Assembly: GCF_947179015.1 (NCBI RefSeq)
Contig: NZ_CAMXCM010000001.1
Span: 233,387-297,386, forward strand
Length of the DNA: 64,000 nt
Source of the DNA: Commensalibacter communis
Lineage (GTDB): Bacteria; Pseudomonadota; Alphaproteobacteria; Acetobacterales; Acetobacteraceae
Direction of reading: 5' to 3'
Positions 5,517 through 47,299 of this stretch are shown in pieces; the first letter of the stretch is position 1, and each line of letters begins with the position of its first letter. The position numbers and the translations under genes are program-made. Under the pieces are notes generated by a model, which was given only the letters and a program-made list of their open reading frames with translations, did not search any database and was not told where the DNA came from.

Positions 5517-5526
5517 GTTTTATAAA

Positions 5527-6063
5527 ATGACATCGTTAAAATGGTCTACTTATTCTGAACTATCAACGCAGCTTTCGAATATAGAAATTGATTGGTTGTT
5601 TAATCAAGGATCATTGACTAAACGTTTGGTTGAACTTAGCGACAACCAATTTTCTCTTGAAATATTATCCGAAAAAACACAAAAGTTGCGGCAAGATGAA
5701 TGTGATTATTTAAATATATCTTCTTCATCACAACAGAGCGTAAGAGAAGTGCTTTTGAAGGGAAAAGAAATTCCTTGGGTCTATGCGCGAAGTATCATTC
5801 TTTGCAATAATATAGATCAAAATGATACAAGCATATTAATTAATATAGGCACGAACCCACTCGGTTCGATTTTATTTGAAAAAGATCAATTTGATCGCTC
5901 TGTTATAGAAGTAACAAAATACCCAGCTAACCTTTTATCATTTGAGCATTCCGATAATGATTTATGGGCTAGACGCTCAAAATTTAATAGTGATACGCAC
6001 ATTGTCTTGGTACAAGAAATATTTTTATCCGATATTTGGAGAGTTATACAATCTATAAAATAA
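5527..6063 (+). CDS. Chorismate pyruvate-lyase (UbiC) family protein
   Basis: WLFNQGSLTKRL ... SVREVLLKGKEIPWVYARSI matches the UbiC pattern (W..xGSLTxRL ... REV.L.....PwvyArS). Start chosen at the internal Met MTSLKW, which gives 178 aa. Confidence 0.6.
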   Translation: MTSLKWSTYSELSTQLSNIEIDWLFNQGSLTKRLVELSDNQFSLEILSEKTQKLRQDECDYLNISSSSQQSVREVLLKGKEIPWVYARSIILCNNIDQNDTSILINIGTNPLGSILFEKDQFDRSVIEVTKYPANLLSFEHSDNDLWARRSKFNSDTHIVLVQEIFLSDIWRVIQSIK

Positions 6064-6104
6064 TGGATGATTGCATCATCATTTTATAGATTAGAAATTA
6101 GTTA

Positions 6105-6611
6105 TTACACTAAATTATTCGGGAAATCTGCTGGTAACTCATTTGCAGCACAATTAATAACATCTTCATTATCGATCCCACGATCTTTAATAAAAGTAAT
6201 ATTAGCAAACTCATCAATAATTTCGATTGGATAGGTTGGTCCAGCTTCACGATAAAATTCCATCAAAGGCAAATTATCATTTTGAAAGCCTCTAGTTCTT
6301 TCGGGATGATTTAAAATCCAGCGAGGAAAAAATATGGTTCCTTGGTAAAAATTATCCTTTAGATTAATGATTATGCTGACATTGGTTCCTGTGGGTTCCG
6401 TCCAAGAAATTTTACATATTTCTGCAGCAATTCTGGCAATATGTACAGATTGACTTTTAACCCATCGTTGCCCGATAAGACCATTATGAATGCGATAATC
6501 GACGATGTTTTCGTTTTTGATATAAAGTTCGTAATTCCAACCATTATCATAGGTAAAAATTAATTGTCTACCAAGAAAATGTGAAAGATCTTTTCTATCA
6601 AAATGAGGCAT
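6105..6611 (-). CDS. padC: Phenolic (hydroxycinnamic) acid decarboxylase
   Basis: 168 aa. HFLGRQLIFTYDNGWNYELYIKNENIVDYRIHNGLIGQRWV...WTEPTGT...IFFPRW mirrors Bacillus/Lactobacillus PadC nearly position-for-position. Confidence 0.8.
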   Translation of the reverse strand: MPHFDRKDLSHFLGRQLIFTYDNGWNYELYIKNENIVDYRIHNGLIGQRWVKSQSVHIARIAAEICKISWTEPTGTNVSIIINLKDNFYQGTIFFPRWILNHPERTRGFQNDNLPLMEFYREAGPTYPIEIIDEFANITFIKDRGIDNEDVINCAANELPADFPNNLV

Positions 6612-30943: not shown

Positions 30944-31018
30944 GGTTGTATAGTTCATTGGTAGAACGCTAAATTTAAGATTTAGAAGTAGCAGGTTCGA
31001 TTCTTGTTATAACCACCA
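30944..31018 (+). tRNA. tRNA gene; anticodon reads UAA from a canonical 7-nt loop but the variable arm is short (atypical for tRNA-Leu)
   Basis: Hand-folded cloverleaf. Acceptor GGTTGTA/TATAACC plus discriminator A plus encoded CCA. D-arm GTTC-ATTGGTA-GAAC. Anticodon stem CTAAA/TTTAG with loop TTTAAGA. T-arm GCAGG-TTCGATT-CTTGT. Confidence 0.7.
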
Positions 31019-31327
31019 TAATAAAATGCCCCAAAATTTTAAGGATGGCAGCCTTAAACTCTTTATAAAATGAAGGGGGGTCTAGGGGGAAGATATTTTC
31101 TAATGAAGGTTAAATGATCTTCGGGTGATTTAATCTAACAGCGGAAAGCATGGTCATCACCGGTTAAAGATGATGTTATGATCGCTTTATTATCAGCAAG
31201 ATGATGGGATTTATATCAAATTGCCTGTAGTAAAGCCATCATAACCACTCGCGGCAATCTGTCGTGATTATGTATATATTTGACACTTAGACCCTTCATT
31301 AAAATCGTTATTTTATGGATATCCACG

Positions 31328-32674
31328 ATGACACAAAGTTTGATCGAAAAAATTACAGGTAAAAAAACCATTATCGTTCAAGAAAATGAACGTATGATTG
31401 CGTCGTATCAAGGGCGGGTTTTAGGATTTTACTCATCAGGAGTGCATTCTTTGCCTAATCGGGATCATTCTTTGGAATATACTATCTATGATTTAAACCA
31501 ACCTGTTTTTTTCAGTGATTTAGAAAAAATTATTCGGCGGAAAATGCCTAGAGAATTAGAGCGACATGTCTTCATCATTGTAGCAAACGACAATGAAATT
31601 TGTATTATCAAAAATGGTATCGCAGTTTATGAGGTTTTAATGCCTAATACTGAGCGTCTGTTATGGAAAGATGCCGGAGAATGGTCAATCCAAAAAATTG
31701 TCATTCCAAACGATTATCGTATGGATGCGAAAGTTGTAAAACAGTTTGGATTGGAACAGAATGTCCTGTCTATCACAACAAATGAGAACGAAGTTTGCAT
31801 CATCAGAAACGGGAATTTGGTTTATGATGTTCTTAGTCCTAATAAAGAATGTTTATTGTGGAAAGATGGAGAAGATTGGTCGCTTGAAAAAATTACCATT
31901 CCAGATGATTGCCGAGTTGATAATAAAGTTGCTAAACAGCTTGTTGTTTCCAAAAAGGCGTCGTTGTTGGTGACCTCCACGATTGAATCTTATGAAAAAG
32001 GGATATTAAGAATTGATGGTATTATATATCCACCATTAGAGGCAGGGACATATTACTTTTGGAATATCGCGGTTAATCTTACGGTTAAAAAAATAGATTT
32101 GCGTCGTCAGACTTTGGATATTACTGGTCAAGAACTATTAACACGCGATCGGGTAACTATTCGTATTAATCTGACCGCAGATTATACAGTAGAAGATCCA
32201 ATGATGGCTGTTTCAGCAGTCAAGGATTACCAAGCAGCCCTTTATAATACGTTACAATTAACGTTTCGTAAAACTTTAGGGGAAATGTCTTTGGATCAGA
32301 TTTTGGATCGCAAATTTGCTATTGGTGATGAAACAATGGCGATGGTGCGTGCGGAAATGAAATCCATTGGATTAGAAGTGCATAATATTGATTTAAAAGA
32401 CGTTATTTTGCCTGGAGAAATGCGTGATATTTTTAATCAGGTCGTTGCTGCTGAAAAGCAAGCAGAGGCGAATGTCATTCGCAGACGTGAAGAAACGAAT
32501 GCGACACGTTCATTATTGAATACAGCCAAAGTCATGGCGGATAATCCGATTATGTTGCGTTTGAAAGAATTGGAAAGTTTAGAAGCTATTGCTGCCAAAG
32601 TCGATCATTTAACAGTTCATAATGGTACCGAAGGGCTGATGAATGATTTGGTTAAGCTAAGAAGTGGTAAATGA
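31328..32674 (+). CDS. SPFH (band-7/stomatin/HflK/C-like) domain protein with N-terminal tandem ~65-aa repeats of unknown type
   Basis: The C-terminal half (IDLRRQTLDITGQELLTRDRVTIRINLTADYTVEDPMMAV...LDQILDRKFAIGDE...HNIDLKDVILPGEMRDIFNQVVAAEKQAEAN) is a typical SPFH domain with coiled-coil tail. The N-terminus carries two near-identical repeats (ENEICIIKNG...LWKDAGEWSIQKIVIPNDYRMD / ENEVCIIRNG...LWKDGEDWSLEKITIPDDCRVD) plus a degenerate third copy upstream. Confidence 0.75.
   Translation: MTQSLIEKITGKKTIIVQENERMIASYQGRVLGFYSSGVHSLPNRDHSLEYTIYDLNQPVFFSDLEKIIRRKMPRELERHVFIIVANDNEICIIKNGIAVYEVLMPNTERLLWKDAGEWSIQKIVIPNDYRMDAKVVKQFGLEQNVLSITTNENEVCIIRNGNLVYDVLSPNKECLLWKDGEDWSLEKITIPDDCRVDNKVAKQLVVSKKASLLVTSTIESYEKGILRIDGIIYPPLEAGTYYFWNIAVNLTVKKIDLRRQTLDITGQELLTRDRVTIRINLTADYTVEDPMMAVSAVKDYQAALYNTLQLTFRKTLGEMSLDQILDRKFAIGDETMAMVRAEMKSIGLEVHNIDLKDVILPGEMRDIFNQVVAAEKQAEANVIRRREETNATRSLLNTAKVMADNPIMLRLKELESLEAIAAKVDHLTVHNGTEGLMNDLVKLRSGK
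31577..31978 (+). repeat. Intragenic tandem duplication (2 x ~200 bp) encoding the repeated N-terminal module of the SPFH protein
   Basis: Protein residues about 84-151 and 152-217 are about 60% identical over their full length, encoded by adjacent DNA copies. Confidence 0.6.
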
Positions 32675-33108: not shown

Positions 33109-33981
33109 TTATTGTATTGTCGATACCCAGCCACGTTCAATTTGATAGCCATAGCCTGTTAATTGATATGGTGTTATATTAATTTTGGTTGAGACTGTTT
33201 TGCTTGAAAAATTACTCAAGCTACCTATACAATCGGTATTATATTCAAAGGGAAAATACATTTTTGATGTGTTTCCAATGGCGCCGCCAAAATCTGTGGA
33301 AGTCACAGGGCCGTAAAAAACACTAATCTTTGCTAGTAAATTACATGATGGAACAACAAATTGGGGAAAGCCAACTTTATAAAATGCATAATATTCTGCA
33401 AATCCACTTCCTGATGTTTGCAGATTGCTAACGGTGCTTGGTAAAGTCCAGCTGCCGATATGGACTGTTTGTCCTGTTTGTTCGTCTTGTAAGTCACCAC
33501 TCCATGTGTTCCCGGTGGTTTTTTTAACGGTCATTTTGTAATTATGACCATAAGTGGTTGGAAATACTACGCCACAGCTTACACCAGGACCGCCATCAGC
33601 TCCGTTTGAGCAATTTGGATCTGTTGTGGTTGAATTGGCAATAAATGATGAAAATACAGCTCTTAGATATTGTTTTCCATTGATATCATATTGTGGTTGA
33701 AGTCCAGTATATGCACCATTTCCTTGATTGCCAGAGTTATTAAAATAAAATTGTTGTGCAAAATAGGTGCCCGTCGCATGTAGAGTATTTTTATTTACTG
33801 TAAATCTGAAGGTTAAATTTGTTAAGCCGGTGTTATTATAAGGCTTAACAAATTTACCGATTTGCCAAGAAAACCCTACATTCCCAGCTGGGACATACGC
33901 CATCGCATTAGATATTCCAATTAGAAAAGTAGAAAAGATACCTACGATTAAACTAATTGTTTGTTTTTTGTTTTTAACCAT
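33109..33981 (-). CDS. Secreted protein of unknown function (Gly/Thr/Asn/Tyr-rich, beta-rich appearance)
   Basis: Signal peptide MVKNKKQTISLIVGIFSTFLIGISNAMA. 290 aa with no recognisable catalytic motif. Flanked by 400-bp AT-rich spacers. Confidence 0.5.
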   Translation of the reverse strand: MVKNKKQTISLIVGIFSTFLIGISNAMAYVPAGNVGFSWQIGKFVKPYNNTGLTNLTFRFTVNKNTLHATGTYFAQQFYFNNSGNQGNGAYTGLQPQYDINGKQYLRAVFSSFIANSTTTDPNCSNGADGGPGVSCGVVFPTTYGHNYKMTVKKTTGNTWSGDLQDEQTGQTVHIGSWTLPSTVSNLQTSGSGFAEYYAFYKVGFPQFVVPSCNLLAKISVFYGPVTSTDFGGAIGNTSKMYFPFEYNTDCIGSLSNFSSKTVSTKINITPYQLTGYGYQIERGWVSTIQ

Positions 33982-35855: not shown

Positions 35856-36317
35856 ATGGCCTCTGTTGGTTTTTATCATTTAACCAAGACTAGTTTAGAA
35901 CAAGCATTGCCAGCGTTGTTGACACGCACGATGCAAGTAAAAGAACATGGGTTGGTCTTATGCAAAGATGACCAACAGGTTAAATTATTGACAGAGGCTT
36001 TATGGCGTATCACACATCCTGTGTGGTTGCCACATGGGTGTCAAACATCTAAACACCAAGATATTTCTCCTGAATGGCAACCGATATGGTTGACAGTGTC
36101 AGAGGAAAATCTTAATCAGGCTGCTTTTTTATTCATTGTAAAAGGGCAGTCTTCACTTTCTTTATCGTCTTTTAAACGAGTGTTTGATTTATTTGATGGG
36201 AATGATGAACAAGCCGTTCAACAAGCACGGGAACGGTGGCGGTTATTAAAACAAGAAGGTCATGATTTGACCTATTGGAAACAGACCGACAAAGGTTGGG
36301 AACAAGGCGGCAAGTAG
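35856..36317 (+). CDS. holC: DNA polymerase III chi subunit
   Basis: VGFYHLTKTSLEQAL...EALWRITHPVWLPHG parallels E. coli HolC (ATFYLLDN...EALWARPAESFVPHN). 153 aa, immediately after pepA. Confidence 0.7.
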   Translation: MASVGFYHLTKTSLEQALPALLTRTMQVKEHGLVLCKDDQQVKLLTEALWRITHPVWLPHGCQTSKHQDISPEWQPIWLTVSEENLNQAAFLFIVKGQSSLSLSSFKRVFDLFDGNDEQAVQQARERWRLLKQEGHDLTYWKQTDKGWEQGGK

Positions 36318-36452
36318 TATTTGTGCTTTTTTGTTTATTTCTTTGCCATTTTACGCTAGTGAATAAACAACTCATTTTATATTCAATATCAAATTATCGC
36401 TTATCCATGATAAAGGAATAAGATTCTGTCACTTTTTATTCTTTGCTTATTA

Positions 36453-38321
36453 TTGTTGATCGTCATGTTGATGGGATTACAGGGCGGGATAGCAGCAAAG
36501 CGGTATTATCAAGGGTATGTTTTAACTGGTCTTGAGAATGTTCCTTTGATAGGATCTTCTTTGGGTTGTATACTCACATTTATTTATTCAATTTTTTATT
36601 TGTCTACAACAAGTTTACCTTTGCCAATATTGAATAAGATATTTGGTTTCAGCTTTTATCTTGATGCATTAAACTCTTTTTGTTTATTTTGTCTTTTCTT
36701 ATGTGGTGCATTATTTGTATCCTTTAAACGAGAGTTAGGCGCTTCTCATTATTTTCTGTTACCTTATGTAAATACATTATTGCTGTTATTATCAGGTAAT
36801 TTATATTTTCTCGTCGGTCTTTTGTCTATTTTGATGATGATGACCTATGGTCTTTCAATAGGAAAAACTATTATTCCTTTTATTGGGTTGGCGAGTTTAC
36901 TAATTATAGTTGTTTTATTGCCCGTACAAGTCGGTGCGCAAGGAAATTTTGTTTATTTACCCTTCGAAATATTAAGACAAATTAGTTTCCCACCCATCAT
37001 ATTATTTTTCGTCTTATTAGCCAGTAGCGTCTTTATGGGATTTGTTCCTTTGAGCCAGTGGCGAATGAATATTGCTCGGCAAGGTAAAGGGGATGTCGTT
37101 TATAATTTTATGCATCTGTTATTATCTATGGCGGGGATGTATTTATTGTTACGATTTTATGTCGATCTGGGTCAAAAAAGTGAAGCTTTGTGGCTTTCAT
37201 TATTGGTAACAATGATGGGTGTCGTTGCCGCTTGTTATGCGGGATGGCAAAGTTTAGTTGTGAAGAGTTTCCAAGAACGGATCAGCTGTTTATATATATT
37301 GGGCAATGCTGTTCTTGTTCAAACGGTTGGCATTGTCTCTTCTTTTATGGTCTCTGAACAACAACAATGGATTTCATTTGCGAATGATGTGTTATATTTT
37401 GGTTTATTCATTCAGTTTATAGGATTCAGTTTTGTTTTTTTATTATCGGGTTTGTTAAAAGCCTATCAAACAACACCGTCTGAGAAACAAATTATTCCTT
37501 CGTCGATTTTAATTTCTTTGTTGCTTTTGAGCTTTTTACTATCAGGTTTTCCTCCATTTGCTGGTTTTGCAATATTATGGGGTAATTTACAATTATTATT
37601 GACGATGCCAGCAGGACATCATTTAACCAATACGTTATTAACAACGGTTATTCTTGGGTTAAATGCGATTATTTTAATCGTCTCCATATTAGGGTGGATA
37701 CGATTAATTTTAACAGGTGGCGTGCAATCACTTCAAAAAGCATTACTAGAATTATCAGACTATTTTTCGCTGAAATCCTTTGCAGAAATTAAAATAGGTA
37801 TTGCTCTTCTCTTTATTATTGCGTTGATACCAGGATGTGTTTTTGTCCTAGCACGTTCTGTTGCAACGAATGTTATGGGCATATCGGAAGCATCAAGTAA
37901 CTTTTTCACTTTTACTATTTCCTCATCACATATTTCATTTACCCCTTGGCTTATTGCGGGCTTATTCATTGGCATTGTCTTAATAATAGGATGGGTTGCG
38001 CGTAAAGAGAGGCAAAAAGCGCCGACTTTATTATTAAGAGAATCAAATTCACAACCGAATACAAACCGTTCCATTATTGTCGAGGAAACAAGTTTTTCAT
38101 TTGGACAAGCCAGTTTTCAAGCAATGTTAGAAAGACGTTTTTCGTTTATACGTTATTTCTCTGTTATCAATTATACCGTTTGTAAAAATTGGATACGACT
38201 AAAGAAAATTTCTTTACGGCATACGCATCATATCAATCTTTTCGTTTGGCAATATCAGAATTTGTTTCTGTTGATGATAATTGCGATTATCCTCGTTTCT
38301 ATCAGTATGATTGCACGGTGA
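36453..38321 (+). CDS. Ehr-like complex subunit: NuoL/HyfB-type antiporter-like polytopic membrane protein (highly divergent)
   Basis: 622 aa, at least 14 TM helices. Its position and size match HyfB/HycC. It retains only weak K..(A/I)YSS-like and broken-helix motifs. First gene of a tightly coupled six-gene operon. Confidence 0.5.
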   Translation: MLIVMLMGLQGGIAAKRYYQGYVLTGLENVPLIGSSLGCILTFIYSIFYLSTTSLPLPILNKIFGFSFYLDALNSFCLFCLFLCGALFVSFKRELGASHYFLLPYVNTLLLLLSGNLYFLVGLLSILMMMTYGLSIGKTIIPFIGLASLLIIVVLLPVQVGAQGNFVYLPFEILRQISFPPIILFFVLLASSVFMGFVPLSQWRMNIARQGKGDVVYNFMHLLLSMAGMYLLLRFYVDLGQKSEALWLSLLVTMMGVVAACYAGWQSLVVKSFQERISCLYILGNAVLVQTVGIVSSFMVSEQQQWISFANDVLYFGLFIQFIGFSFVFLLSGLLKAYQTTPSEKQIIPSSILISLLLLSFLLSGFPPFAGFAILWGNLQLLLTMPAGHHLTNTLLTTVILGLNAIILIVSILGWIRLILTGGVQSLQKALLELSDYFSLKSFAEIKIGIALLFIIALIPGCVFVLARSVATNVMGISEASSNFFTFTISSSHISFTPWLIAGLFIGIVLIIGWVARKERQKAPTLLLRESNSQPNTNRSIIVEETSFSFGQASFQAMLERRFSFIRYFSVINYTVCKNWIRLKKISLRHTHHINLFVWQYQNLFLLMIIAIILVSISMIAR

Positions 38322-38326
38322 TTGCG

Positions 38327-39271
38327 ATGATGTTTTGGTTATTAACTTTTAGCGTCACTTTGCTGCATTTAATGATGGTTTTATTATTGGCTCCTTGGGT
38401 AATGGGGTTCCAAAAATGGCTAGAGGCAAAGATACAAGGCCTGCCTGTTGTTCCTTTTTGGTTTTATTGGGGTGAAATCTACTCGGTTAATATTAAACGT
38501 TTATCTAGTTTTTTAACGATTACCTATTCATATACCTCTTTATTGCCTTTCATAGCTTTGGGAGCAGCAATCATTGCAGCTTTACTGGTGCCTAGTTTTA
38601 CGGTGGGAATGGTTACAGCTTCTTTTTCTGACTTGTTGTTAATTATTGCTTTGCTGATGATGATCCCCGTATCTTTTTTCTTGGTTTCCTTGCGCTATGA
38701 TTCCTTGAAAAGTCTAAAATTGTTACAGACCATGTTGGTTGATAATCTTTTATTTTTGCCTGTCTTATTCTTCGTGTTAACCATAATTCGTTTCATTACA
38801 GGCAGTACATTCCTTGATACGGTGGTAATATTTTTTCACCAGTTTGGTGAATTTCCTTTGATGGCGTATTGCCCTTTATTGGTTGTGGCTTTTTCTTTGT
38901 TATTTGTGGTTTGGGATATGCCTAATTTTTCACAAAGAGAAGGGATGGATGGCTTTGGTGGGGCAGATAGAGGGTTGCTGCTTTACACAAATGATGTGCA
39001 GTTTTTAGTTTGGTTGTCTCTGATCGCGCTGTTTCTATGGCCACAAAGCTTAGTTATTTTGCAACTTGGTGATCACTATTTTATAAATTGGTTGCGCGCA
39101 GTTCCTTTTGGGATATTGGCTTGGGTTACTAAAATTATTGCTGAATGTTTTATATTGGCAATGATGCGCAGTTTATTGCTGTTTTCCAGTGGTATTTATC
39201 GTGTTGGTATTGCAGTTGTTCTAAGTTTTTTGGCAATTATCTTATATTTTGCTGGTTTGAGTGGAGAGTAA
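38327..39271 (+). CDS. Ehr-like complex subunit: NuoH/HycD/HyfC-type membrane protein
   Basis: About 315 aa, 8 TM. N-terminal LLAPWVMGFQKWLEAKIQGLPVVPF resembles the NuoH LLAERKvlgymQxRxGPNvvGp. PNFSQREGMDGFGGADRGLLLY resembles the NuoH PFDLaEaEsELVsGfnvEY loop. ATG lies 6 bp after the upstream stop. Confidence 0.55.
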   Translation: MMFWLLTFSVTLLHLMMVLLLAPWVMGFQKWLEAKIQGLPVVPFWFYWGEIYSVNIKRLSSFLTITYSYTSLLPFIALGAAIIAALLVPSFTVGMVTASFSDLLLIIALLMMIPVSFFLVSLRYDSLKSLKLLQTMLVDNLLFLPVLFFVLTIIRFITGSTFLDTVVIFFHQFGEFPLMAYCPLLVVAFSLLFVVWDMPNFSQREGMDGFGGADRGLLLYTNDVQFLVWLSLIALFLWPQSLVILQLGDHYFINWLRAVPFGILAWVTKIIAECFILAMMRSLLLFSSGIYRVGIAVVLSFLAIILYFAGLSGE

Positions 39272-39273
39272 CG

Positions 39274-39807
39274 ATGTGGCTTTCCTTATTCATTAGTATT
39301 TTATTATTGGCAACGATTGGTGGAATGTCCCATCCTTCTGCTCAAAGTTTTACTCATTCAATACTAACTATTTTTTGTCTATTAGCAGGAAAAGAAAATG
39401 CGCTTGATTCACAGATTACCGTAGGGTGCATGATCTTGTCTTTTGCATCAGGTGTTGTTTTAAGTATTATTTTAAGGCGACAATCCTTTCCACGCTCTTT
39501 CAAAGAATTATTCTCTGGGCTTTTTTTCGTTATCTTGATGGTCTCGCTAATTGTATACATTTTGCCACCTTCTTTACCAAGGTTAGAATATGGAATTGTT
39601 TTATCCATTATTTTAATTGGTATGGTTTATAGTGTTTTAGGAAAAACAGTTGGTGGGCAAATTATGGGGGTTGCGTGTGCATTAAATGCATTGTCATTGG
39701 TTGTTGGGTTAAATGGGCAAGGCATGGCTTTTATTGCACTGGTTTCATTTTACAGTGTTTTTCTATTCATGTCTTACGTTGTTGTTTCTAGATTGGGGCG
39801 ATTTTGA
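39274..39807 (+). CDS. Ehr-like complex small integral membrane subunit (HyfE/NuoK position)
   Basis: About 178 aa, 5-6 TM. Start is 3 bp after the upstream stop, and the 3' end overlaps the next gene (ATGA). Assignment is by operon position only. Confidence 0.4.
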   Translation: MWLSLFISILLLATIGGMSHPSAQSFTHSILTIFCLLAGKENALDSQITVGCMILSFASGVVLSIILRRQSFPRSFKELFSGLFFVILMVSLIVYILPPSLPRLEYGIVLSIILIGMVYSVLGKTVGGQIMGVACALNALSLVVGLNGQGMAFIALVSFYSVFLFMSYVVVSRLGRF

Positions 39808-41135
39808 TCGTGGAAACAATAAATGATCTAGCAAAATTATTATATTGGGGTTGTGTGATTTGGCCTTTGGCTGGAATGGCTGGTATTTTTGCGTGTGAAG
39901 GTCAAGCAGCTAGGGCAAAATGTCATTTTGTTATTTCGATTATTTTAATTGTTATTACGGCTGCTTCGGCATGTTTAGCAGATGATTTTTTCTTGTCTAC
40001 GGTGTGGAGTAGTGATGGGTTAACACGATTTTTGCGTCTTATCATCGCGATTGGGGCTGGTATCTCAACGGTCTTATTAACTTTTTGGGCACCCAGAAGT
40101 CTTTTCTTTGCCAAAGAAGACAAAAGATCATTATGGAATTTATTATTATTTCATTTGCTAATAACCGTTTCAATGTTAGCGGTTGGGGTTAATAATCTTT
40201 TCATTGCTTTGTTATTTATCGTCGTGTTAGCTGCGTTACTAATGTTAGGATGCATGATGATGCAAGGAGGCAGCAGCATCAAAGCAGGTTGGGGATATTT
40301 TCGGTTAGTATTGTTGTTCGCAATGATGGCTGTTGTTTCGGCATTTTTACTGGCATCGGTTCCAATCGATAATGCTCCTTATCTGGCACAATTTAGCAGT
40401 GTATTACTAAGTGTAAGTCTGGTTTTAATTGCTGGATTATTTCCAATGTCTATGTTTTCTTTAGGATTGACAATCGAACTGCCTTTGACATTAGGGGGCA
40501 TTGGCTCTTTTATTCTTTCTGTTCCAACGATCGCTACTGTTTTAAGGTTATATCAACTTCCAAATTATCAGCCTTCTGCATATCTGTTAATTATTTTGGT
40601 CATTATCAGTTTATGTTTCGTGATAATGAATGAACAAAATCGTCAACGCTCTTCCTTGTGCCTCAGCTCTATATTCTTAGTTGCCATGAGTATTTTAGGG
40701 GGCATTTTTGCTAATCATGTCGAAGGAGTGTTCAGTGCTTGCTTGTTTATGATGGCACTAGTTGTTTTTGCACCCTTGGGATATATGATGAGTCAAAAGC
40801 AAAGGAATAATCAAGAAGCATGTGAAGGTTGGGTTATGTTGGCATTATCTGGGTTACCACCGATGGGTATTTTTTGGGCTTGCTCGGTATTATTTGCTTA
40901 TTTGATGCAAACGTTGCCTGTGGCAGGAATATTGATTATTGGTCTATTTTTGATAAGAGGATATATTCTATTTCAAAAGGGTAGAACGATTTTTTTCTCT
41001 CCAGATATGTTTAATAAAGAAATACAATTGATTCTGGGGATTATTATTACGCAAACAATTATTATTCCTTTTGTTACATCCAGTTGGCTATACCAGATTT
41101 CTTTGGAATTTATTAAACATCATGGTGGATCATGA
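39804..41135 (+). CDS. Ehr-like complex subunit: NuoN/NuoM/HyfF-type antiporter-like membrane protein (divergent)
   Basis: 443 aa, about 13 TM. Translationally coupled to both neighbours. Confidence 0.45.
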   Translation: MIVETINDLAKLLYWGCVIWPLAGMAGIFACEGQAARAKCHFVISIILIVITAASACLADDFFLSTVWSSDGLTRFLRLIIAIGAGISTVLLTFWAPRSLFFAKEDKRSLWNLLLFHLLITVSMLAVGVNNLFIALLFIVVLAALLMLGCMMMQGGSSIKAGWGYFRLVLLFAMMAVVSAFLLASVPIDNAPYLAQFSSVLLSVSLVLIAGLFPMSMFSLGLTIELPLTLGGIGSFILSVPTIATVLRLYQLPNYQPSAYLLIILVIISLCFVIMNEQNRQRSSLCLSSIFLVAMSILGGIFANHVEGVFSACLFMMALVVFAPLGYMMSQKQRNNQEACEGWVMLALSGLPPMGIFWACSVLFAYLMQTLPVAGILIIGLFLIRGYILFQKGRTIFFSPDMFNKEIQLILGIIITQTIIIPFVTSSWLYQISLEFIKHHGGS

Positions 41136-42667
41136 TACAGTCTGAGCCACCGTTAACAACGCATACCAAGGCTGCGGATTTAATCAAGAAACACAAAAGG
41201 GAAAGTAAGTTCTTTTTCCGTGTAGAAGAAGATGAGTGGAGAGAAATTGTCTCAAAGCTACCTTTAGATCGTTTGATTTTTTTGGCGATGTGGTGCAGCG
41301 GTGATGATATTAACATTTTGTTTCTCGAAAATGGTTTCCGTCCGTTGGGGGTAAGGGTTGCTTTTTCAATTGATCGTTATTTAGCTGTATCTCAAATCCG
41401 TCCAGCAGCGATTATTTACGAACGTATGATTTGGGAGTTATGGGGCAAAGAGGCGATGAATGCCGTCGATTTGCGTCCATGGTTAGATCGAGGCCTGTGG
41501 AAACATACTTGGCCATTATCCTCTAAACAAGCACCAACTACTTGGCCGCCAGAACAATATGATTATGAAATGCCTCCTGATATCGTTCAAAAAGGTGGCG
41601 AGCTTGCAACGATTGATCCTTCATCTTGTCAAGGTTTTTCTCCGTCCTTATGGCGTTTTGCGATGGTGGGTGAAACAATTATAAAGGCAGAATCGCTATA
41701 TGGATATACGCATCGTAGTATTATATCTAATTTATTAAATAAAAACGTTTTAGAGGTTTTACCTAGAATTAGCCGTATTAATGCAGTCGATAGTGTGGCA
41801 CATCAAATTGCGTTTGCTCATGCGATCGAAGATATGGCGCAGTTTATGCCAACCGCCAAAGTATTACGAAAGCGGGTGATTTTATCGGAGCTTTCGAAAA
41901 TAATTGCCCATTTGCTCTATTTATCGCAGCTATTTCGTCAGTTGGGGATTGGCATTATAGCTTCTCGTTGTGAGATTGCGCGTGAACTCTTAATGCGTTG
42001 GAGCGCGCATTATTACGGTCACCGATGGCTAATGGATTGTGTCTTTCCTGGGACTGTTCGTTCAATCGATGAAATGGGGGAGGAAGCTACCGAAAAATTA
42101 CCAGCGAAAGTAAAATATCTATGTGCTGAAGCTCATAAACTGATGCATGGTTTCCCAGGATTAATAGATAGTTTGCAAGATATTGGGGTATTAAGCACAG
42201 AGCAAGCCATCCAATTTAATATTGGTGGGGTTATTGGGCGAGCTTCTGGGCGGGATGTGGATATTCGTCGATATATGCCTGAATATCGTTTAGAGTGGTT
42301 GTCTCCTCGTACTTTTACCAGTGGGGATGTGTATGCACGGATGCAACTTCGATTTCAGGAAATTGAGAATGCATTGCAAATTATTGAAACAATCTTGCAA
42401 GACGTCGAAGAAGAAGCCCCTGTTGAAGATAAGAAAATCATCGTTGAAACTTTATATGGTGAAGGAATAGGGGTTTGCGAAGGGGTGCAAGGGGATCTGT
42501 GGTATTATATCAAGGTAGAGGGTGGGATTATTAAGGATATTTTTATCCGTGATCCTGCTGCCAATCAGGCCTATGTATTACAGGGTATTTTGCAAGGCGA
42601 ACTTTGGGAAAATCAATCCATTATCAGGGCTTCTTTTGGAATATTATCAACGGGCGTTGATCTATAA
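41132..42667 (+). CDS. Ehr-like complex large subunit: NuoC-NuoD fusion / HycE-HyfG homologue lacking both NiFe-binding Cys motifs
   Basis: The N-terminus is a NuoC-like domain (LDRLIFLAMWCSGDD). The NuoD-like part has ESLYGYTHRS in place of hydrogenase RxCGxCxxxH (aligning with NuoD HIGLLHRG), CEGVQGDLWYYI aligning with EAPRGELGVY, and a C-terminus FGILSTGVDL aligning with the NuoD ...FGEVDR instead of DPCxxCxxH. Confidence 0.75.
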   Translation: MIQSEPPLTTHTKAADLIKKHKRESKFFFRVEEDEWREIVSKLPLDRLIFLAMWCSGDDINILFLENGFRPLGVRVAFSIDRYLAVSQIRPAAIIYERMIWELWGKEAMNAVDLRPWLDRGLWKHTWPLSSKQAPTTWPPEQYDYEMPPDIVQKGGELATIDPSSCQGFSPSLWRFAMVGETIIKAESLYGYTHRSIISNLLNKNVLEVLPRISRINAVDSVAHQIAFAHAIEDMAQFMPTAKVLRKRVILSELSKIIAHLLYLSQLFRQLGIGIIASRCEIARELLMRWSAHYYGHRWLMDCVFPGTVRSIDEMGEEATEKLPAKVKYLCAEAHKLMHGFPGLIDSLQDIGVLSTEQAIQFNIGGVIGRASGRDVDIRRYMPEYRLEWLSPRTFTSGDVYARMQLRFQEIENALQIIETILQDVEEEAPVEDKKIIVETLYGEGIGVCEGVQGDLWYYIKVEGGIIKDIFIRDPAANQAYVLQGILQGELWENQSIIRASFGILSTGVDL

Positions 42668-42678
42668 AAGGATAAAAA

Positions 42679-43245
42679 ATGGCTGTAATCCGAGCATTAT
42701 TTGATTCTGTTTTTGGAAAAATCAAACCTTTAGATCAAAAAATAGGTCATACTAATCAGATTCTACATCTTTTTCCTGTCCCTTGTGGGGATTGCAATGG
42801 TTGTATATTGGAAATAAACGCATTGCGAGGCGCAGCATTTGATATTTCAGCCAGTGGGTTAGCCTTTGTCGACCATCCAGCCATTGCAAATATTTTATTG
42901 ATTACTGGGGTATTAACCCGTTCTATGATCCCGTATTTAGAAAAAAATTGGGAGTTAATGCCAGAACCAAAAGCGATTGTGACTGTTGGGGCTTGTGCAA
43001 TTAATAAAAATGTTTTCGATGAAAATTATGCGGTTTTAAAAGAGACGACTGGAGGGGAAGATTGTATCTTGAAAATCGAAGGATGCCCCCCAGCACCTCA
43101 ACAGATTATGGAGGGGTTATTGGGGGTGTTGGGGCTTCGTCCTCAGTCTGAATTGGATCTTCCTCATCCTCCTCACTCGCCTCTTTATGAAGAGCCTCTG
43201 CATCAGCCTTCAACAGACGAAAACTCCGATAACTCAACGGGATAG
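42679..43245 (+). CDS. Ehr-like complex small subunit: NuoB/HycG-type [4Fe-4S] protein, all four Cys ligands retained
   Basis: PCGDCNGCILEI...ILLITGVLTRSM...MPEPKAIVTVGACA...IEGCPPAP parallels E. coli HycG (CGGCNGCEIEI...ILLFTGAVTRAM...APDPKICISYGACG...IPGCPPTP) motif for motif. It has a 40-aa proline/acidic C-terminal tail. Confidence 0.8.
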   Translation: MAVIRALFDSVFGKIKPLDQKIGHTNQILHLFPVPCGDCNGCILEINALRGAAFDISASGLAFVDHPAIANILLITGVLTRSMIPYLEKNWELMPEPKAIVTVGACAINKNVFDENYAVLKETTGGEDCILKIEGCPPAPQQIMEGLLGVLGLRPQSELDLPHPPHSPLYEEPLHQPSTDENSDNSTG

Positions 43246-44047
43246 TGCATAAATATAATATACCACTAAATGCAAAAGTTCCCCATGGATCTGCAACTAA
43301 TACAGTTGCATAAATGGTAGTCCCTAAAAATAAAGGTAGAACATAGGCAGTAGGAACTTTAAAATTTTTAAATGACCAAATCGGAATGGTTGAGATCAAT
43401 AAGAAAGATGTTGTTACCAACATAATAATGGTTAATATTTCTGAATGAGCAATATTAATCAAAAAATCCCATTGTAGTTTATTGGCTTCTAATCCCAAGA
43501 ATACAGGGAATAACACGATCCCAGCCCCAGCAGGTGCGGGTACTCCTGTAAAAAAGTTACTGGCGTATTTAGGTTTTTCTTCATCTTCTAAAGACGCGTT
43601 GAATCGAGCCAATCGTAATGCCATACAAACGGCAAACATTGCACAAGGGACAAAAGCATAACCGCTTCTTATATCTTTTAACGCCCACATATATAAAATG
43701 AAACAAGGGGAGATCCCAAAAGATAAAAAGTCGGCCAAGCTGTCTAGTTCCGCACCAAAACGGCTGGTTCCTCGTAATAAACGCGCAATGCGCCCATCTA
43801 ACCCATCAAAACAAGCTGCGATTACAATAGCAATAACTGCTGTGCCAAAATCCCCATGGATAGCACTGCGAATACCAATTAAACCTGCGCATAATCCTAA
43901 CATTGTTAAAAGGTTAGGAATCATGCGGTTAAACGATATTCCTTTTACCCTAGGGCGTATTTTTTGACGTAATAGTAAATTACGTCGTGCACGAAGCGAT
44001 AAAGATTTAGGTGTTTTAGAGTTTAGAGACAATAGTTTCCCCACCAA
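43106..44047 (-). CDS. pssA: CDP-diacylglycerol--serine O-phosphatidyltransferase (CDP-alcohol phosphatidyltransferase family)
   Basis: Signature DGLDGRIARLLRGTSRFGAELDSLAD (D-G-x2-A-R-x8-G-x3-D-x3-D). Multi-TM, acidic C-terminal tail. The true start may be the internal Met MIPNLL at about 43924. Confidence 0.8.
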   Translation of the reverse strand: MVGKLLSLNSKTPKSLSLRARRNLLLRQKIRPRVKGISFNRMIPNLLTMLGLCAGLIGIRSAIHGDFGTAVIAIVIAACFDGLDGRIARLLRGTSRFGAELDSLADFLSFGISPCFILYMWALKDIRSGYAFVPCAMFAVCMALRLARFNASLEDEEKPKYASNFFTGVPAPAGAGIVLFPVFLGLEANKLQWDFLINIAHSEILTIIMLVTTSFLLISTIPIWSFKNFKVPTAYVLPLFLGTTIYATVLVADPWGTFAFSGILYLCTIPLSYRSFRLLKADAEALHKEASEEDEEDPIQTEDEAPTPPITPP

Positions 44048-44726: not shown

Positions 44727-45470
44727 TCAGTCAGAATCTTTTAAATTCAAACTGGATTTGGATGATTTGCTTTGTAGTATATAGTTTTTTTTCAAAGGTG
44801 CCACTGTAATTGGTGCATAAAGATTTTTTTCAATCTCAACAAGGTGATATCCACCCAAAAAAGGAACAAAAAACAACCCCGTGAATTCAAGTATTTTATT
44901 TGTTCTTAGAGAAACAGAATTCATGATTTTAGGAGGGAAGTACAAAACACGTTCATAATGATTTATACGAAACATATGTTGTTTTAAAACGATATTTAAT
45001 TTTTGAATAAAGAACGCATTTCTATATCGAAAAGAAAGATTATCAATAACCGACCACCATCCAAGTTTATTGGGTAAGAGTAAGATGATTTTTCCGTGAT
45101 CTTCTAAAGTCTCCCAGCATGAACGAAGCATTAAGCTAAATTGATCCTTGGATAGTTTGGCATCATGCACGTACAAAATACGGTTGATACTACAAGCTTG
45201 CAAGGGAAAAGAATCAATGGATAAATGGCATATATTTTGAGTATATAAAGATTTCAAATTCTGAGATGGGAGAGAATCTAATATCCCATGAATATGATAT
45301 TGAGGGTACCAAGTGTTTTTTGGAATTAAAGAGGATGTTTGCCCCAATGTAAATAGAGATAGTCCGTATAGATTAGGCCACAGTTGTGCTAATTTATGTT
45401 GAAGATAGGTTGCAATTCCTTGTCTTTTTTGACGTGGATCGGTTAGAATAGAATTAAAGTCGTAGGCCAT
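44727..45470 (-). CDS. Hypothetical protein, possibly a degenerate class-I methyltransferase-like fold
   Basis: 247 aa. Weak post-I/II-like stretch ILYVHDAKLSKDQFSLMLRSCWETLEDHGKIILLLP but no intact GxGxG. Divergent from gloB, a position often occupied by a methyltransferase in Alphaproteobacteria. Confidence 0.3.
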   Translation of the reverse strand: MAYDFNSILTDPRQKRQGIATYLQHKLAQLWPNLYGLSLFTLGQTSSLIPKNTWYPQYHIHGILDSLPSQNLKSLYTQNICHLSIDSFPLQACSINRILYVHDAKLSKDQFSLMLRSCWETLEDHGKIILLLPNKLGWWSVIDNLSFRYRNAFFIQKLNIVLKQHMFRINHYERVLYFPPKIMNSVSLRTNKILEFTGLFFVPFLGGYHLVEIEKNLYAPITVAPLKKNYILQSKSSKSSLNLKDSD

Positions 45471-45536: not shown

Positions 45537-46268
45537 ATGTCTATTATTATTGAACCTATTTCTTTCTATGAGTCAAATTATGCATGGATAATGATCGATG
45601 AAAAGAGCAAAAATGCAATTGTTGTTGACCCAGGAGATGCAAAACCCGTTTTAAAATATTTAGAAGAAAAACAATTATCTTTACAAGCGATTTTGATTAC
45701 TCATTTTCATGACGATCATATTGGTGGAATAGCAGAATTAAAAAGCAAATATTCGTGTAAAATATATGCGCCTTTAAAAGAGATCAATAAAATTCCAAAT
45801 ATCGATCAAACCGTAAAAGATGGGGATATCATTTCTTTAGAGGCAATGGGACAGGCTGAAATAATAGAAACACCAGGTCATACATTGGGTTCAATTTGTT
45901 ATTATCTGCCTAATTTAAAAGTTATTTTCACAGGCGATACAATGTTTAGCATGGGATGTGGACGTTTATTCGAAGGAACCCCGCAACAAATGTATAATAG
46001 TTTTGGAAAGTTAAAGAATTTACCAGAAGATACTCTGGTTTATTGTGCGCATGAATATACCGCCGATAATGGACGTTTTGCGATATCTGTGATCCCTGAA
46101 AGTATAGCTTTGAAAAATAGGGTGGAACAGGTAAAAAAGTTAAGATCACAATATTTGCCAACATTGCCCATCTCATTATTAGATGAAAAAAGAACTAATC
46201 CCTTTTTACTTGCGAAAAATGTTGATGAATTCACGGCATTTCGTAAAGCAAAAGATCATTTTGCATAA
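45537..46268 (+). CDS. gloB: Hydroxyacylglutathione hydrolase (glyoxalase II)
   Basis: Metallo-beta-lactamase motif THFHDDHIGG plus downstream H and D ligands (ETPGHTLGS, CAHEY). 243 aa. Confidence 0.85.
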   Translation: MSIIIEPISFYESNYAWIMIDEKSKNAIVVDPGDAKPVLKYLEEKQLSLQAILITHFHDDHIGGIAELKSKYSCKIYAPLKEINKIPNIDQTVKDGDIISLEAMGQAEIIETPGHTLGSICYYLPNLKVIFTGDTMFSMGCGRLFEGTPQQMYNSFGKLKNLPEDTLVYCAHEYTADNGRFAISVIPESIALKNRVEQVKKLRSQYLPTLPISLLDEKRTNPFLLAKNVDEFTAFRKAKDHFA

Positions 46269-47299
46269 TGTCTGATTAACATTTTCAAGTCATTATACCA
46301 ACGTGTTTCCAAAGGAATGGCTCCCAGATACAATACACCATCGCGGATTAAGAGCGTTAGATGAATTTGTGATGGCAGTGAGGTCTGGGAAAGTTCCTGT
46401 TGTAGTTTATTACAACATTTTAAAGATGATAATTGTTCGTAGATTGCTTGATTAACACCATTCAAATAAAGTGATAACTCGCCTGTCGGAGCCATTTGAG
46501 GAAAAGGTAGATATAATTTGCCAGAAGAGTTAATGGCTAGATTATTCCAGCTTGAATTAATATTCTGAACTAACAATTTGTATAAATTATTAGGTTCTTG
46601 AACTAATGCTGCTTGGATATATACATTTTTCAGCTTTTGCGGGGATAAATTATTAACATTTACAGTCATTTGTTGTATATTAAGGCTTAGAAAGGCGAGA
46701 CTGTCTTGAGGTGTTGCTTGAATATTCCAATGCAGCTTGGATCGTAAATTTTTAACCTGTATAGATTGAATTGTCTCTGTAGATTGTGAAGGGCTGGTAT
46801 AAAAGATTTCATCACATTGCAGGTAAATTGAATTCTGCGAAATATTCTTGAAAATAGATGTGTGGATATTCCAAGAATTACCATGAATTTGGATACATTG
46901 GTTTAGGTTATTCAAGGAACAAAAAAGCTGCTCCCCGTTAAGACGAATTGAGATACTCAAAGGATGTGATAAAGAATAAAAAATTATCGCCTGTTTTGCT
47001 TGCCAAAGAATTTGGGGGGGGTGTGAAGAAATATCCTTTTGTATTGTTGGATATGCAACGATAACCTGTGGCCAAATCGTCCATTTAGAGGCAGAGGCTG
47101 ATTGAAATTTAAAGATCAGACCTTGTTTAGTTAAAATATTTTGTTGATTGGTCAAAAACAGATTGATCGTTTGTTTCAAATAGACGTGGGAAAATAAAAA
47201 AGTTCCCCAAAAAAGAAAAAACATCAATCCCATTAACAGAAATTTTTGGTAAGATTTTTTTTTACGGTTAAATAAATGTCGTTTATTGTTATTAAACAT
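46256..47299 (-). CDS. Hypothetical membrane-anchored periplasmic protein
   Basis: N-terminal basic stretch plus one TM (FLLMGLMFFLFWGTFLF), then about 300 aa of polar Q/N/S-rich sequence with no motif. Confidence 0.4.
   Translation of the reverse strand: MFNNNKRHLFNRKKKSYQKFLLMGLMFFLFWGTFLFSHVYLKQTINLFLTNQQNILTKQGLIFKFQSASASKWTIWPQVIVAYPTIQKDISSHPPQILWQAKQAIIFYSLSHPLSISIRLNGEQLFCSLNNLNQCIQIHGNSWNIHTSIFKNISQNSIYLQCDEIFYTSPSQSTETIQSIQVKNLRSKLHWNIQATPQDSLAFLSLNIQQMTVNVNNLSPQKLKNVYIQAALVQEPNNLYKLLVQNINSSWNNLAINSSGKLYLPFPQMAPTGELSLYLNGVNQAIYEQLSSLKCCNKLQQELSQTSLPSQIHLTLLIRDGVLYLGAIPLETRWYNDLKMLIRHYAK

Follow-up and report, generated by a model that had tools for sequence, protein, structure and literature searches.

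The hyqRBCEFGI operon of Azorhizobium caulinodans encodes an 'endo-hydrogenase' and has also been reported from Azospirillum, Bradyrhizobium, Rhodopseudomonas palustris, Xanthobacter, and other bacteria (Ng et al. 2009, PMC2650096; Sprecher et al. 2012, PMC3357923). Its structural genes are homologous to those for NuoL, NuoH, NuoJ/K, NuoM/N, a NuoC::D fusion (HyqG, 504 amino acids (aa)), and NuoB. HyqG is missing both CxxC motifs and has three family-conserved Cys (258, 491, and 497), four Cys in HyqI serve an N2-type centre, and the operon is regulated by NifA and sigma-54; its deletion alters diazotrophic growth and H2 recycling/evolution (PMC2650096; PMC3357923). Hyq has been classed together with Ehr as a group-4-like complex without NiFe ligands, and both have been discussed as evolutionary intermediates. 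Ehr (PMC6349859, PMC10284858, PMC4758237), which includes Rv0082-Rv0087 of Mycobacterium tuberculosis, is usually taken to link redox chemistry with ion translocation via antiporter-like subunits. Its function is regarded as unknown, and it is excluded from the hydrogenases by HydDB. Here we describe a related six-gene operon from Commensalibacter communis, an acetic acid bacterium that lives in insect guts and whose genome measures about 2.5 Mb at 37.4% GC. The operon lies in a 64,000-nucleotide stretch of forward-strand DNA (assembly GCF_947179015.1, contig NZ_CAMXCM010000001.1, positions 233,387 to 297,386), hereafter the window, to which all coordinates refer unless a related locus is named. 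The original prediction for this locus, made by a model from the sequence letters alone, stated that Ehr complexes are known only from comparative genomics. That statement is too strong, given the deletion phenotypes, NifA regulation, and H2 measurements for A. caulinodans hyq and the expression data that exist for the M. tuberculosis Rv0081-87 Ehr locus.

The operon occupies positions 36453-43245 on the + strand and consists of six tightly coupled, co-directional open reading frames (ORFs), W1 to W6. In order, they encode a HyfB-like protein, a HycD/NuoH-like protein, a small membrane protein, a HyfF-like protein, a NuoC-NuoD fusion, and a NuoB-like protein. W5 and W1 are 100% identical to C. 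communis proteins, and the proteins of this operon, which is present across Commensalibacter, are mostly annotated as hypothetical. The genes very probably encode a six-subunit complex of the Hyq/Ehr type within the complex-I/group-4-hydrogenase superfamily. This is in line with the original prediction, which named a hyf-like complex of the Ehr type encoded by six genes, its large subunit without a NiFe centre and its small subunit competent to bind Fe-S, and which gained support from hidden Markov model (HMM), PDB, fold, and profile-profile searches. The same prediction gave the ORFs as translationally coupled with junctions of -4 to +12 nucleotides (nt), and the five junctions read from the sequence agree closely with it, at -4, +2, -4, -4, and +11 nt. 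The features by which Ehr complexes are recognised are all present, namely a large subunit homologous to NuoD and the group-4 hydrogenases, the absence of the NiFe Cys, and clustered NuoB-, NuoH-, and antiporter-like genes.

The likeness to Hyq goes further. Both have six structural genes in the identical order (hyqB-C-E-F-G-I), a large subunit of about 504-511 aa that is without both CxxC motifs, and a small subunit with the four HyqI-type Cys for one N2-type cluster. Both are also without NuoI/HycF, HyfA/D, and NuoEFG, and both occur in hosts with a separate bona fide complex I, which for Commensalibacter has been reported at the genus level. For residue-level comparison we used the metagenomic locus L002 as a proxy for canonical Hyq, in place of the A. 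caulinodans sequences themselves. L002 fits the published Hyq numbering, with a HyqG of 504 aa bearing Cys491 and Cys497 and a HyqI bearing Cys55, Cys58, and Cys152. The products of L002 and of a second metagenomic locus, L003, match, in order, PF00361, PF00146, no family (220 aa), PF00361, PF00329 plus PF00346, and PF01058. In contrast to Hyq, the window operon is without the conserved HyqG Cys491/497 pair and the upstream hyqR gene with its NifA/sigma-54 promoter, it has lost charged residues and motifs of HyqB, HyqC, HyqE, and HyqF, and its membrane subunits are unrecognised by Pfam. A small helix-turn-helix (HTH) regulator gene lies directly upstream of the structural genes in both metagenomic loci (HTH_31 in L002, 4676-4930; ArsR-type HTH_5 in L003, 4139-4480); it resembles hyqR and M. 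tuberculosis Rv0081, and the Acetobacteraceae operons are without one.

The large subunit W5 (ATG 41132 to 42667, 511 aa) matched Complex1_49kDa (PF00346) in Pfam at 2.5e-21 and Complex1_30kDa weakly, at 0.041. The NuoD models of NCBIfam recognised it at E-values down to 7e-38, yet with 130 bits against an equivalog cut-off of 360, and it also matched MbhL (6cfw_L) at 2.6e-16. An AlphaFold model built from 35 homologues (pLDDT 84.8, pTM 0.88) was compared with solved structures by Foldseek, which found E. coli HycE (7z0s_E) as the best match (template-modelling (TM) score 0.80 over 513 columns, E=2e-23) and fused E. coli NuoCD as the next (TM score ~0.74); the predicted fold thereby confirms the NuoC-NuoD fusion architecture. 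In the MbhL alignment, the hydrogenase L1 motif RxCGxCxxxH falls on R215-I-N-A-V-D-S-V-A-H224 of W5, with Asn217 and Asp220 occupying the two L1 Cys positions, and the C-terminus SFGILSTGVDL stands where hydrogenases carry DPCxxCxxR (DPCxxCxxH/R). All six Cys of W5 (55, 166, 280, 303, 331, and 449) lie outside any CxxC, as none occurs in its 511 aa. Judged from these alignments, W5 is a protein without NiFe ligands. The original prediction was right in this respect, and the intact CxxC pairs that it had named as a refutation did not turn up, but it placed L1 at ESLYGYTHRS, which is instead the GYxHRG motif common to NuoD.

Its description of W5 as a NuoD quinone-site module was not supported by closer alignment. 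The quinone-binding Tyr87 of Thermus thermophilus Nqo4 corresponds to Ala218 in a gapless HMMER alignment (2fug_4), and the NuoD GPxH position (His38) reads DPSS; by these residues, W5 does not look like a conserved NuoD quinone site. The residues conserved in Hyq have also changed. The C-terminal Cys pair of HyqG (491/497), which sits in PLCNKSFNCSYAGHDL in L002, is gone from W5, where the sequence reads SIIRASFGILSTGVDL, and the canonical Hyq large-subunit motif GPVHAGIIEPGHFRF has degenerated to IDPSSCQGFSPSLWRF. C280 of W5 aligns to C274 of L002, and the mapping of the third HyqG Cys is uncertain. Outside the Acetobacteraceae, the closest relatives of W5 are Hyq-like proteins with 27-28% identity.

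The small subunit W6 (ATG 42679 to 43245, 188 aa) matched Oxidored_q6 (PF01058) in Pfam at 4.8e-19 and the NuoB model of NCBIfam with 75 bits, against an equivalog cut-off of 116. Its best PDB match was E. coli HycG (7z0s_G, 1.1e-20), with an alignment that is gapless over 129 residues and bears out the HycG-like Cys spacing of the original prediction. Cys 39, 42, 106, and 136 of W6 correspond to the ligands of the proximal [4Fe-4S] cluster (Cys 55, 58, 122, and 152 in the HyqI of L002) and are invariant in 14 of the 14 lineages aligned, even where small-subunit identity falls to 34-42%. The alignments thus show W6 to have kept all four ligands of one predicted N2-type [4Fe-4S] cluster. The C-terminal tail, in contrast to this core, is variable and ranges from absent to present, and W6 measures between 156 and 188 aa among the Commensalibacter species. 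The profile-HMM check that the original prediction had called for, with NuoB, NuoC, and NuoD, placed W5 and W6 in these families (NuoC weakly) and below the equivalog cut-offs.

None of the four membrane subunits matched Pfam or NCBIfam at E<=1, and none of the family profiles of W1, W4, and W3 matched any PDB sequence at E<=1 (E<=10 for W3). This agrees with the view that they are so divergent that only short motifs survive. Their homology was therefore built through intermediates, the less divergent metagenomic loci L002 and L003. W1 begins at TTG 36453 or ATG 36465 and ends at 38321; the database model of 618 aa starts from the ATG, and the TTG would give 622 aa. Hydropathy analysis suggested about 14-16 hydrophobic segments, a hydrophilic stretch at around residues 516-589 that includes a conserved EETSFSFGQ motif, and a final transmembrane (TM) helix at the C-terminus. 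The W1 family profile aligned to the HyfB-like proteins of 667-669 aa encoded by L002 and L003 (hhalign 97%, P=1e-10, 481 columns), which argues that W1 is a HyqB/HyfB/NuoL-like, antiporter-like subunit. This C-terminal EETSFSFGQ motif is its most conserved element and is in common with canonical HyqB (TAMSFAQ). Compared with L002 and L003, however, the TM5 Glu is gone (WE to LL, hydrophobic), the TM7 Lys is gone (GxKAG to VFMG, with the canonical GxKAGxVPLHVWLP reading VFMGFVPLSQWRM in W1), and the TM12 Glu is gone (GFVSEW to GFAILW). All three positions now hold hydrophobic residues, and these residue-loss calls rest on the 97% profile match.

W2 (GTG 38318 to 39271, 317 aa; its GTG start overlaps the W1 stop in GTGA) could be placed against a solved structure, as its family profile matched subunit 4 of the E. 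coli formate hydrogenlyase, HycD (7z0s_D), at E=2.5e-4 over residues 15-281. Together with the match to the NuoH-like proteins of L002 and L003 (hhalign 97.5%, P=8e-12), this identifies W2 as a probable HyqC/HycD/NuoH-like subunit, in which the canonical TM5-6 loop of HyqC, AENxRxPxD...HLELxxxHEAxxLEYSG, is shortened and rewritten to DMPNFSQR-EGMDGFGGAD. W3 (ATG 39274 to 39807, 177 aa) matched the third-gene products of Novacetimonas and Gluconacetobacter strongly (hhalign 99.8%) and the canonical HyqE-like proteins of 220 aa weakly (P=0.002-0.06). From its position in all related operons and its collinear alignment, W3 would be the small membrane subunit in the HyqE/HyfE slot, similar to NuoJ/K. 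In the collinear multiple sequence alignment, the Glu of the canonical HyqE LENG motif aligns to ALNAL in W3.

W4 (TTG 39804 to 41135, 443 aa; database model 441 aa) gave weak but collinear alignments to the PF00361-positive fourth genes of L002 and L003 (P=1e-3 over 403 columns and P=4e-3). Its position and the remnants VNNLF, GLFPMSMF, and SGLPPMGIF, which are collinear with canonical motifs, suggest that it is the HyqF/HyfF/NuoM-N-like subunit. An AlphaFold model from a 10-sequence alignment was of low confidence (pLDDT 42, pTM 0.27), and a fold search with it returned E. coli NuoN on top at a non-significant level (TM score 0.38, E=1.7), which is at most a hint. In W4, the TM5 Glu is gone (AIELA to FIVVL, giving Val), the TM7 Lys is gone (GTKVG to LIAGL, giving Ile/Ala/Gly, with the canonical GTKVGLAPLHAW reading LIAGLFPMSMF), the Lys position of HSLTK is a hydrophobic residue, and the TM12 Glu is gone (GIFMSEF to GIFWACS, giving Cys360). 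L002 and L003, on the other hand, keep every antiporter TM5 Glu, TM7 Lys, and TM12 Glu that is lost in W1 and W4. By these alignments, all four membrane subunits are shown to have lost the canonical ionisable residues for proton translocation, which canonical Hyq keeps, and every Acetobacteraceae version has this pattern in common. The polar residues that are invariant in the W4 family are H41, D71, H117, N130, N131, R167, and C360.

Among the solved structures, the best matches were those of the E. coli formate hydrogenlyase (PDB 7Z0S), pairing W6 with HycG, W2 with HycD, and W5 with HycE, and the gene order parallels hyfB-C-E-F-G-I. Nevertheless, the window operon differs from E. coli Hyc/Hyf in that the NiFe site, the HycF/HyfH ferredoxin subunit, HycB/HyfA, the FdhF partner, and the antiporter relay residues are all missing. 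A NuoI-like 2x[4Fe-4S] subunit (HycF/EchF/MbhN) was found neither in the operon and its flanks nor in any related locus. With complex I (Nuo/Nqo), the operon has in common the homologous NuoB, NuoC, NuoD, NuoH, and NuoL/M/N-type modules, the N2-type ligands, and a large subunit without NiFe Cys. However, it encodes six subunits instead of 13-14 and is without the NADH-oxidising module, NuoI, NuoA, and NuoJ. The equivalents of Nqo4 Tyr87 and His38 are Ala and Ser, the charged residues of TM5, TM7, and TM12 are missing, and the NuoB and NuoD scores are below the cut-offs. In the operon and its flanks, genes for NuoA, E, F, G, I, J, and K are absent. The operon resembles other Ehr loci in its large and small subunits, which are group-4-hydrogenase-like with the NiFe-binding residues missing, and in their clustering with NuoH-like and Mrp/antiporter-like membrane subunits, and it departs from them in having antiporter-like subunits without the canonical relay residues. 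It also has no adjacent formate dehydrogenase (FDH) or NuoEF-type partner, unlike the proposed FDH-Ehr of Margulisbacteria.

The same six-gene order was found in L001-L003 and L005-L018. Besides the window, the operon occurs in other Commensalibacter species and metagenome-assembled genomes (MAGs; L005-L009), Novacetimonas, Gluconacetobacter entanii, and Acetobacter estunensis. The alignment used for the locus scan is narrow and its patterns are specific to the Acetobacteraceae clade; the resulting 14 loci under-sample the family and are uninformative about absence elsewhere. A crude neighbour-joining (NJ) tree places the Acetobacteraceae large subunits in one clade, and Commensalibacter, Novacetimonas, and G. 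entanii have the pepA-holC-operon-pssA-psd-orf-gloB synteny in common. The single clade points to vertical inheritance within the Acetobacteraceae and a single ancient degeneration. This degeneration is older than the split of the low-GC Commensalibacter from Novacetimonas, and the genes still persist. Downstream, convergent pssA-psd genes were present in every Acetobacteraceae locus with enough flank (L001, L005-L010, L012-L014, and L018). Because the canonical Hyq loci L002 and L003 are without this adjacency, we read its constancy as inherited synteny and not as a functional link. Upstream, the neighbours vary within the family, from pepA-holC with or without an aldo-keto reductase to parC and LysR in A. 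estunensis and gloB with an ABC transporter in L012. A redox partner or conserved donor module was sought beside the operon in the other Acetobacteraceae, and none was found among the neighbours. In L012, an Acetobacter MAG, an insert of about 1.5 kb (5055-6553 of that locus) separates gene 2 (NuoH-like) of the operon from gene 3; this insert carries an ORF of 155 aa on the opposite strand with zero Pfam matches, and the small subunit of this locus bears a 17-residue acidic insertion.

In six Commensalibacter lineages as well as in Novacetimonas, Gluconacetobacter, and Acetobacter, each of the six ORFs is intact, lengths are conserved, and the junctions are coupled; internal stops are absent from the six Commensalibacter lineages. 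Against the closest two of the species examined, C. papalotli and C. intestini, every gene gave a dN/dS (ratio of nonsynonymous to synonymous substitution rates) of 0.04-0.14 by the Nei-Gojobori method, although dS is saturated and the values are rough. The large subunit is even retained in C. melissae, a honey-bee symbiont with a reduced genome of about 2 Mb (1.96 Mb). These results show that the six genes are under purifying selection throughout the genus Commensalibacter. At the same time, the operon is evolving much faster than its flanks: between Commensalibacter and Novacetimonas, identity is 54% for pepA, 29% for W5, and undetectable for W1 and W4. Against three more distant Commensalibacter lineages, identity was 51-59% for W5, 52-55% for W6, and 38-49% for W2, compared with 28-39% for W4 and 30-31% for W1, which found no match in the third lineage. 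The best-kept subunits, W5, W6, and W2, are those forming the NuoB/NuoD/NuoH junction.

The best overall explanation, which we hold with slightly less than even confidence, is that the operon encodes a member of the Hyq/Ehr group that is complete and maintained by selection but stripped catalytically. More tentatively, and with clearly greater doubt, we suggest that this member may act as a membrane-anchored, non-pumping electron-transfer module with a single [4Fe-4S] cluster; its assembly, electron transfer, and lack of pumping are what we infer. The six proteins would still assemble as an L-shaped complex, with a NuoB/NuoCD head on a NuoH-like foot and the two antiporter-fold subunits as inert anchors. 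Such a complex would not be a hydrogenase, nor would it pump protons in the conventional way. Electrons might be exchanged between a cytoplasmic partner and either the ubiquinone pool or a different membrane-soluble substrate. The membrane-side substrate would sit in a pocket at the W6/W5/W2 (NuoB/NuoD/NuoH) interface, and the cytoplasmic partner would dock directly on the head, because no NuoI/HycF-type ferredoxin subunit exists. Since a separate nuo operon and ndh have been reported for the genus Commensalibacter, the complex is almost certainly not the complex I of the organism.

Several points weigh against this explanation. The residue-loss calls in W4, W3, and W2 hang on alignments of very low identity, and W4 and W3 are assigned as homologues of HyqF and HyqE from position, collinearity, and motif remnants, with hhalign probabilities of 8-20% and the low-confidence model of W4. 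The invariant polar residues of the W4 family could make an unconventional ion path, and the saturation of dS noted above bears on the strength of the selection argument. Neither an electron donor or acceptor nor expression data were found. As the quinone-binding residues of complex I are absent, reactivity with quinone would be an analogy, and the Fe-S cluster can be purely structural. Finally, hyq-dependent H2 phenotypes have been reported, for A. caulinodans only, despite its NiFe-less HyqG (PMC3357923), and therefore missing Cys alone do not exclude an H2-linked role.

Among the rival explanations, an unlikely but serious one is that the complex is a 'deranged' scaffold, which performs no redox chemistry and has a structural role, such as stabilising a respiratory complex or organising the membrane, with the cluster as a folding element. 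None of the canonical catalytic and proton-relay residues that were tested remains, and the rapid divergence of the operon relative to its flanks (54% for pepA against 29% for W5 and no detectable identity for W1 and W4) would suit such a role. There is also a precedent in the same family, as Acetobacteraceae reportedly retain respiratory homologues that have lost functional residues, the 'deranged' ligand-less bc1 and COX1-like proteins, for which structural roles have been proposed (Degli Esposti et al. 2023, PMC10715153). In those published cases, however, the cofactor ligands are lost, whereas here no feature is more strictly conserved than the four cluster ligands. Furthermore, it is the subunits forming the redox pocket (W5, W6, and W2) that are best kept, not the bulky anchors in the membrane, and no partner complex is known. 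A bolder reading, which we regard as unlikely, is that of a complex-I-type chassis that has given up its NiFe or quinone catalytic residues and the canonical relay but has been kept, with an intact N2-type cluster and under purifying selection, across a whole bacterial family; this would imply a machine repurposed for a new activity. The options would be a redox sensor, a new active site where the NiFe pocket once was, for a membrane-soluble substrate, or an ion path of different residues, for which H41, D71, H117, N130, N131, R167, and C360 of the W4 family would be the candidates.

We give little credence to a working Hyq-type 'endo-hydrogenase' or energy-converting Ehr, in which the turnover of H2 or another small substrate would be coupled to quinone reduction and ion translocation. 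The six-gene architecture and ancestry are common with Hyq, and hyq deletion mutants show diazotrophic-growth and H2 phenotypes even though HyqG is without both CxxC motifs. The window operon, however, is missing not only the NiFe ligands but also the HyqG Cys491/497 pair, and the ionisable residues of HyqB, HyqC, HyqE, and HyqF are all lost. Neither hyqR nor a NifA box or sigma-54 promoter was found, the comparative-genomics paper on Commensalibacter never uses the terms 'hydrogen' or 'nitrogen fixation', and HydDB counts Ehr as non-hydrogenases. A true NiFe hydrogenase was rejected on the missing L1/L2 Cys and the absence of any CxxC from W5. It is very improbable that the operon is a decaying remnant heading to pseudogenisation in a host-associated genome. 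The extreme divergence of W1, W3, and W4, their lack of HMM matches, and the loss of functional residues could be taken that way, but the intact ORFs with conserved lengths and junctions in six Commensalibacter lineages and three other genera, the retention of the large subunit in the 1.96-Mb genome of C. melissae, and the persistence of the genes since before the Commensalibacter/Novacetimonas split speak against decay. A pseudogene cluster was ruled out by the dN/dS values of 0.04-0.14 against the two closest species compared. There is next to no chance that the operon belongs to an ordinary NADH:quinone oxidoreductase (nuo) with other subunits encoded elsewhere. It does have NuoB and NuoD HMM matches, but the scores are far under the equivalog cut-offs (130 against 360 bits for NuoD), the best matches in structure and sequence are to HycE and HycG, the genes follow a hyf-like order, and the Q-site Tyr and His are absent. 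With a separate nuo operon reported for Commensalibacter, this candidate was for practical purposes ruled out by that operon and by the sub-cut-off scores, and the outcome that the original prediction had named as fatal to its proposal, an ordinary nuo operon, did not materialise.

Searchable literature gave no description of the operon in Commensalibacter, Komagataeibacter, Novacetimonas, or Gluconacetobacter. The comparative-genomics papers on the genus Commensalibacter do not discuss it, as far as they are searchable, and PMC10715153 makes no mention of it and uses 'hydrogenase' once only, for a type 1 hydrogenase. The Ehr/Hyq kind of complex is known; what is new in the Acetobacteraceae form is the loss of the relay residues with the Fe-S cluster retained. 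Ehr/Hyq is the least understood branch of the complex-I/membrane-hydrogenase superfamily, and the Acetobacteraceae form offers a natural dissection of it, in which the NiFe ligands, the quinone Tyr/His, the Hyq Cys, and the relay of the four membrane subunits have been removed, and the six-subunit architecture and a single predicted Fe-S cluster have been kept by evolution. Whatever activity the complex has must depend on the retained parts, and its identification would narrow down what an Ehr-type complex must minimally do and bear on the disputed claim that NiFe-less Hyq is a hydrogenase. As the hosts Commensalibacter, Novacetimonas hansenii, and Acetobacter estunensis are cultivable aerobes, the system is experimentally accessible.

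In the window, pepA and holC lie upstream of the operon, and downstream, on the - strand, are pssA, psd, and an unknown gene, followed by gloB on the + strand. These flanks are without an adjacent NuoEFG, NuoI/HycF, FDH, or ferredoxin gene, as the original prediction had noted. The presumed promoter region is the intergenic stretch between holC and W1 (36318..36464, + strand), which was read and scanned with regular expressions. Between 36200 and 36470 there were zero sigma-54 (TGGYAY-N5-TKGCW) and zero NifA (TGT-N10-ACA) sites, and holC, not a hyqR-type regulator gene, lies directly upstream of W1. A scan of 36200-43600 for sigma-70 promoters and terminators returned sites no more numerous than in shuffled sequence.

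Some further features of the window may be mentioned. The 3' ends of W6 (+) and pssA (-) overlap convergently by 140 nt (43106-43245), and the C-terminal tails of both proteins are of low complexity and rich in P/E/D/S. The AT skew is -0.16 to -0.28 across the four membrane-protein genes (36001-42000) and within +/-0.1 elsewhere in the window; the negative values reflect the T-rich codons of + strand genes whose proteins are rich in Phe, Leu, and Ile. Three ORFs on the - strand have zero Pfam matches. One of 247 aa (44727-45470), the unknown gene between psd and gloB, is matched downstream of the operon in ten of the Acetobacteraceae loci examined (25-77% identity, with a different position in L010) and is a conserved unknown. 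Another of 347 aa (46256-47299) shares 13 nt with the 3' end of gloB, and a third of 290 aa (33109-33981) has a signal-peptide-like N-terminus. A tRNA gene at 30944-31015 is the only Rfam match in the window, and an SPFH/Band-7 protein of 464 aa with a long N-terminal extension is encoded at 31280-32674.

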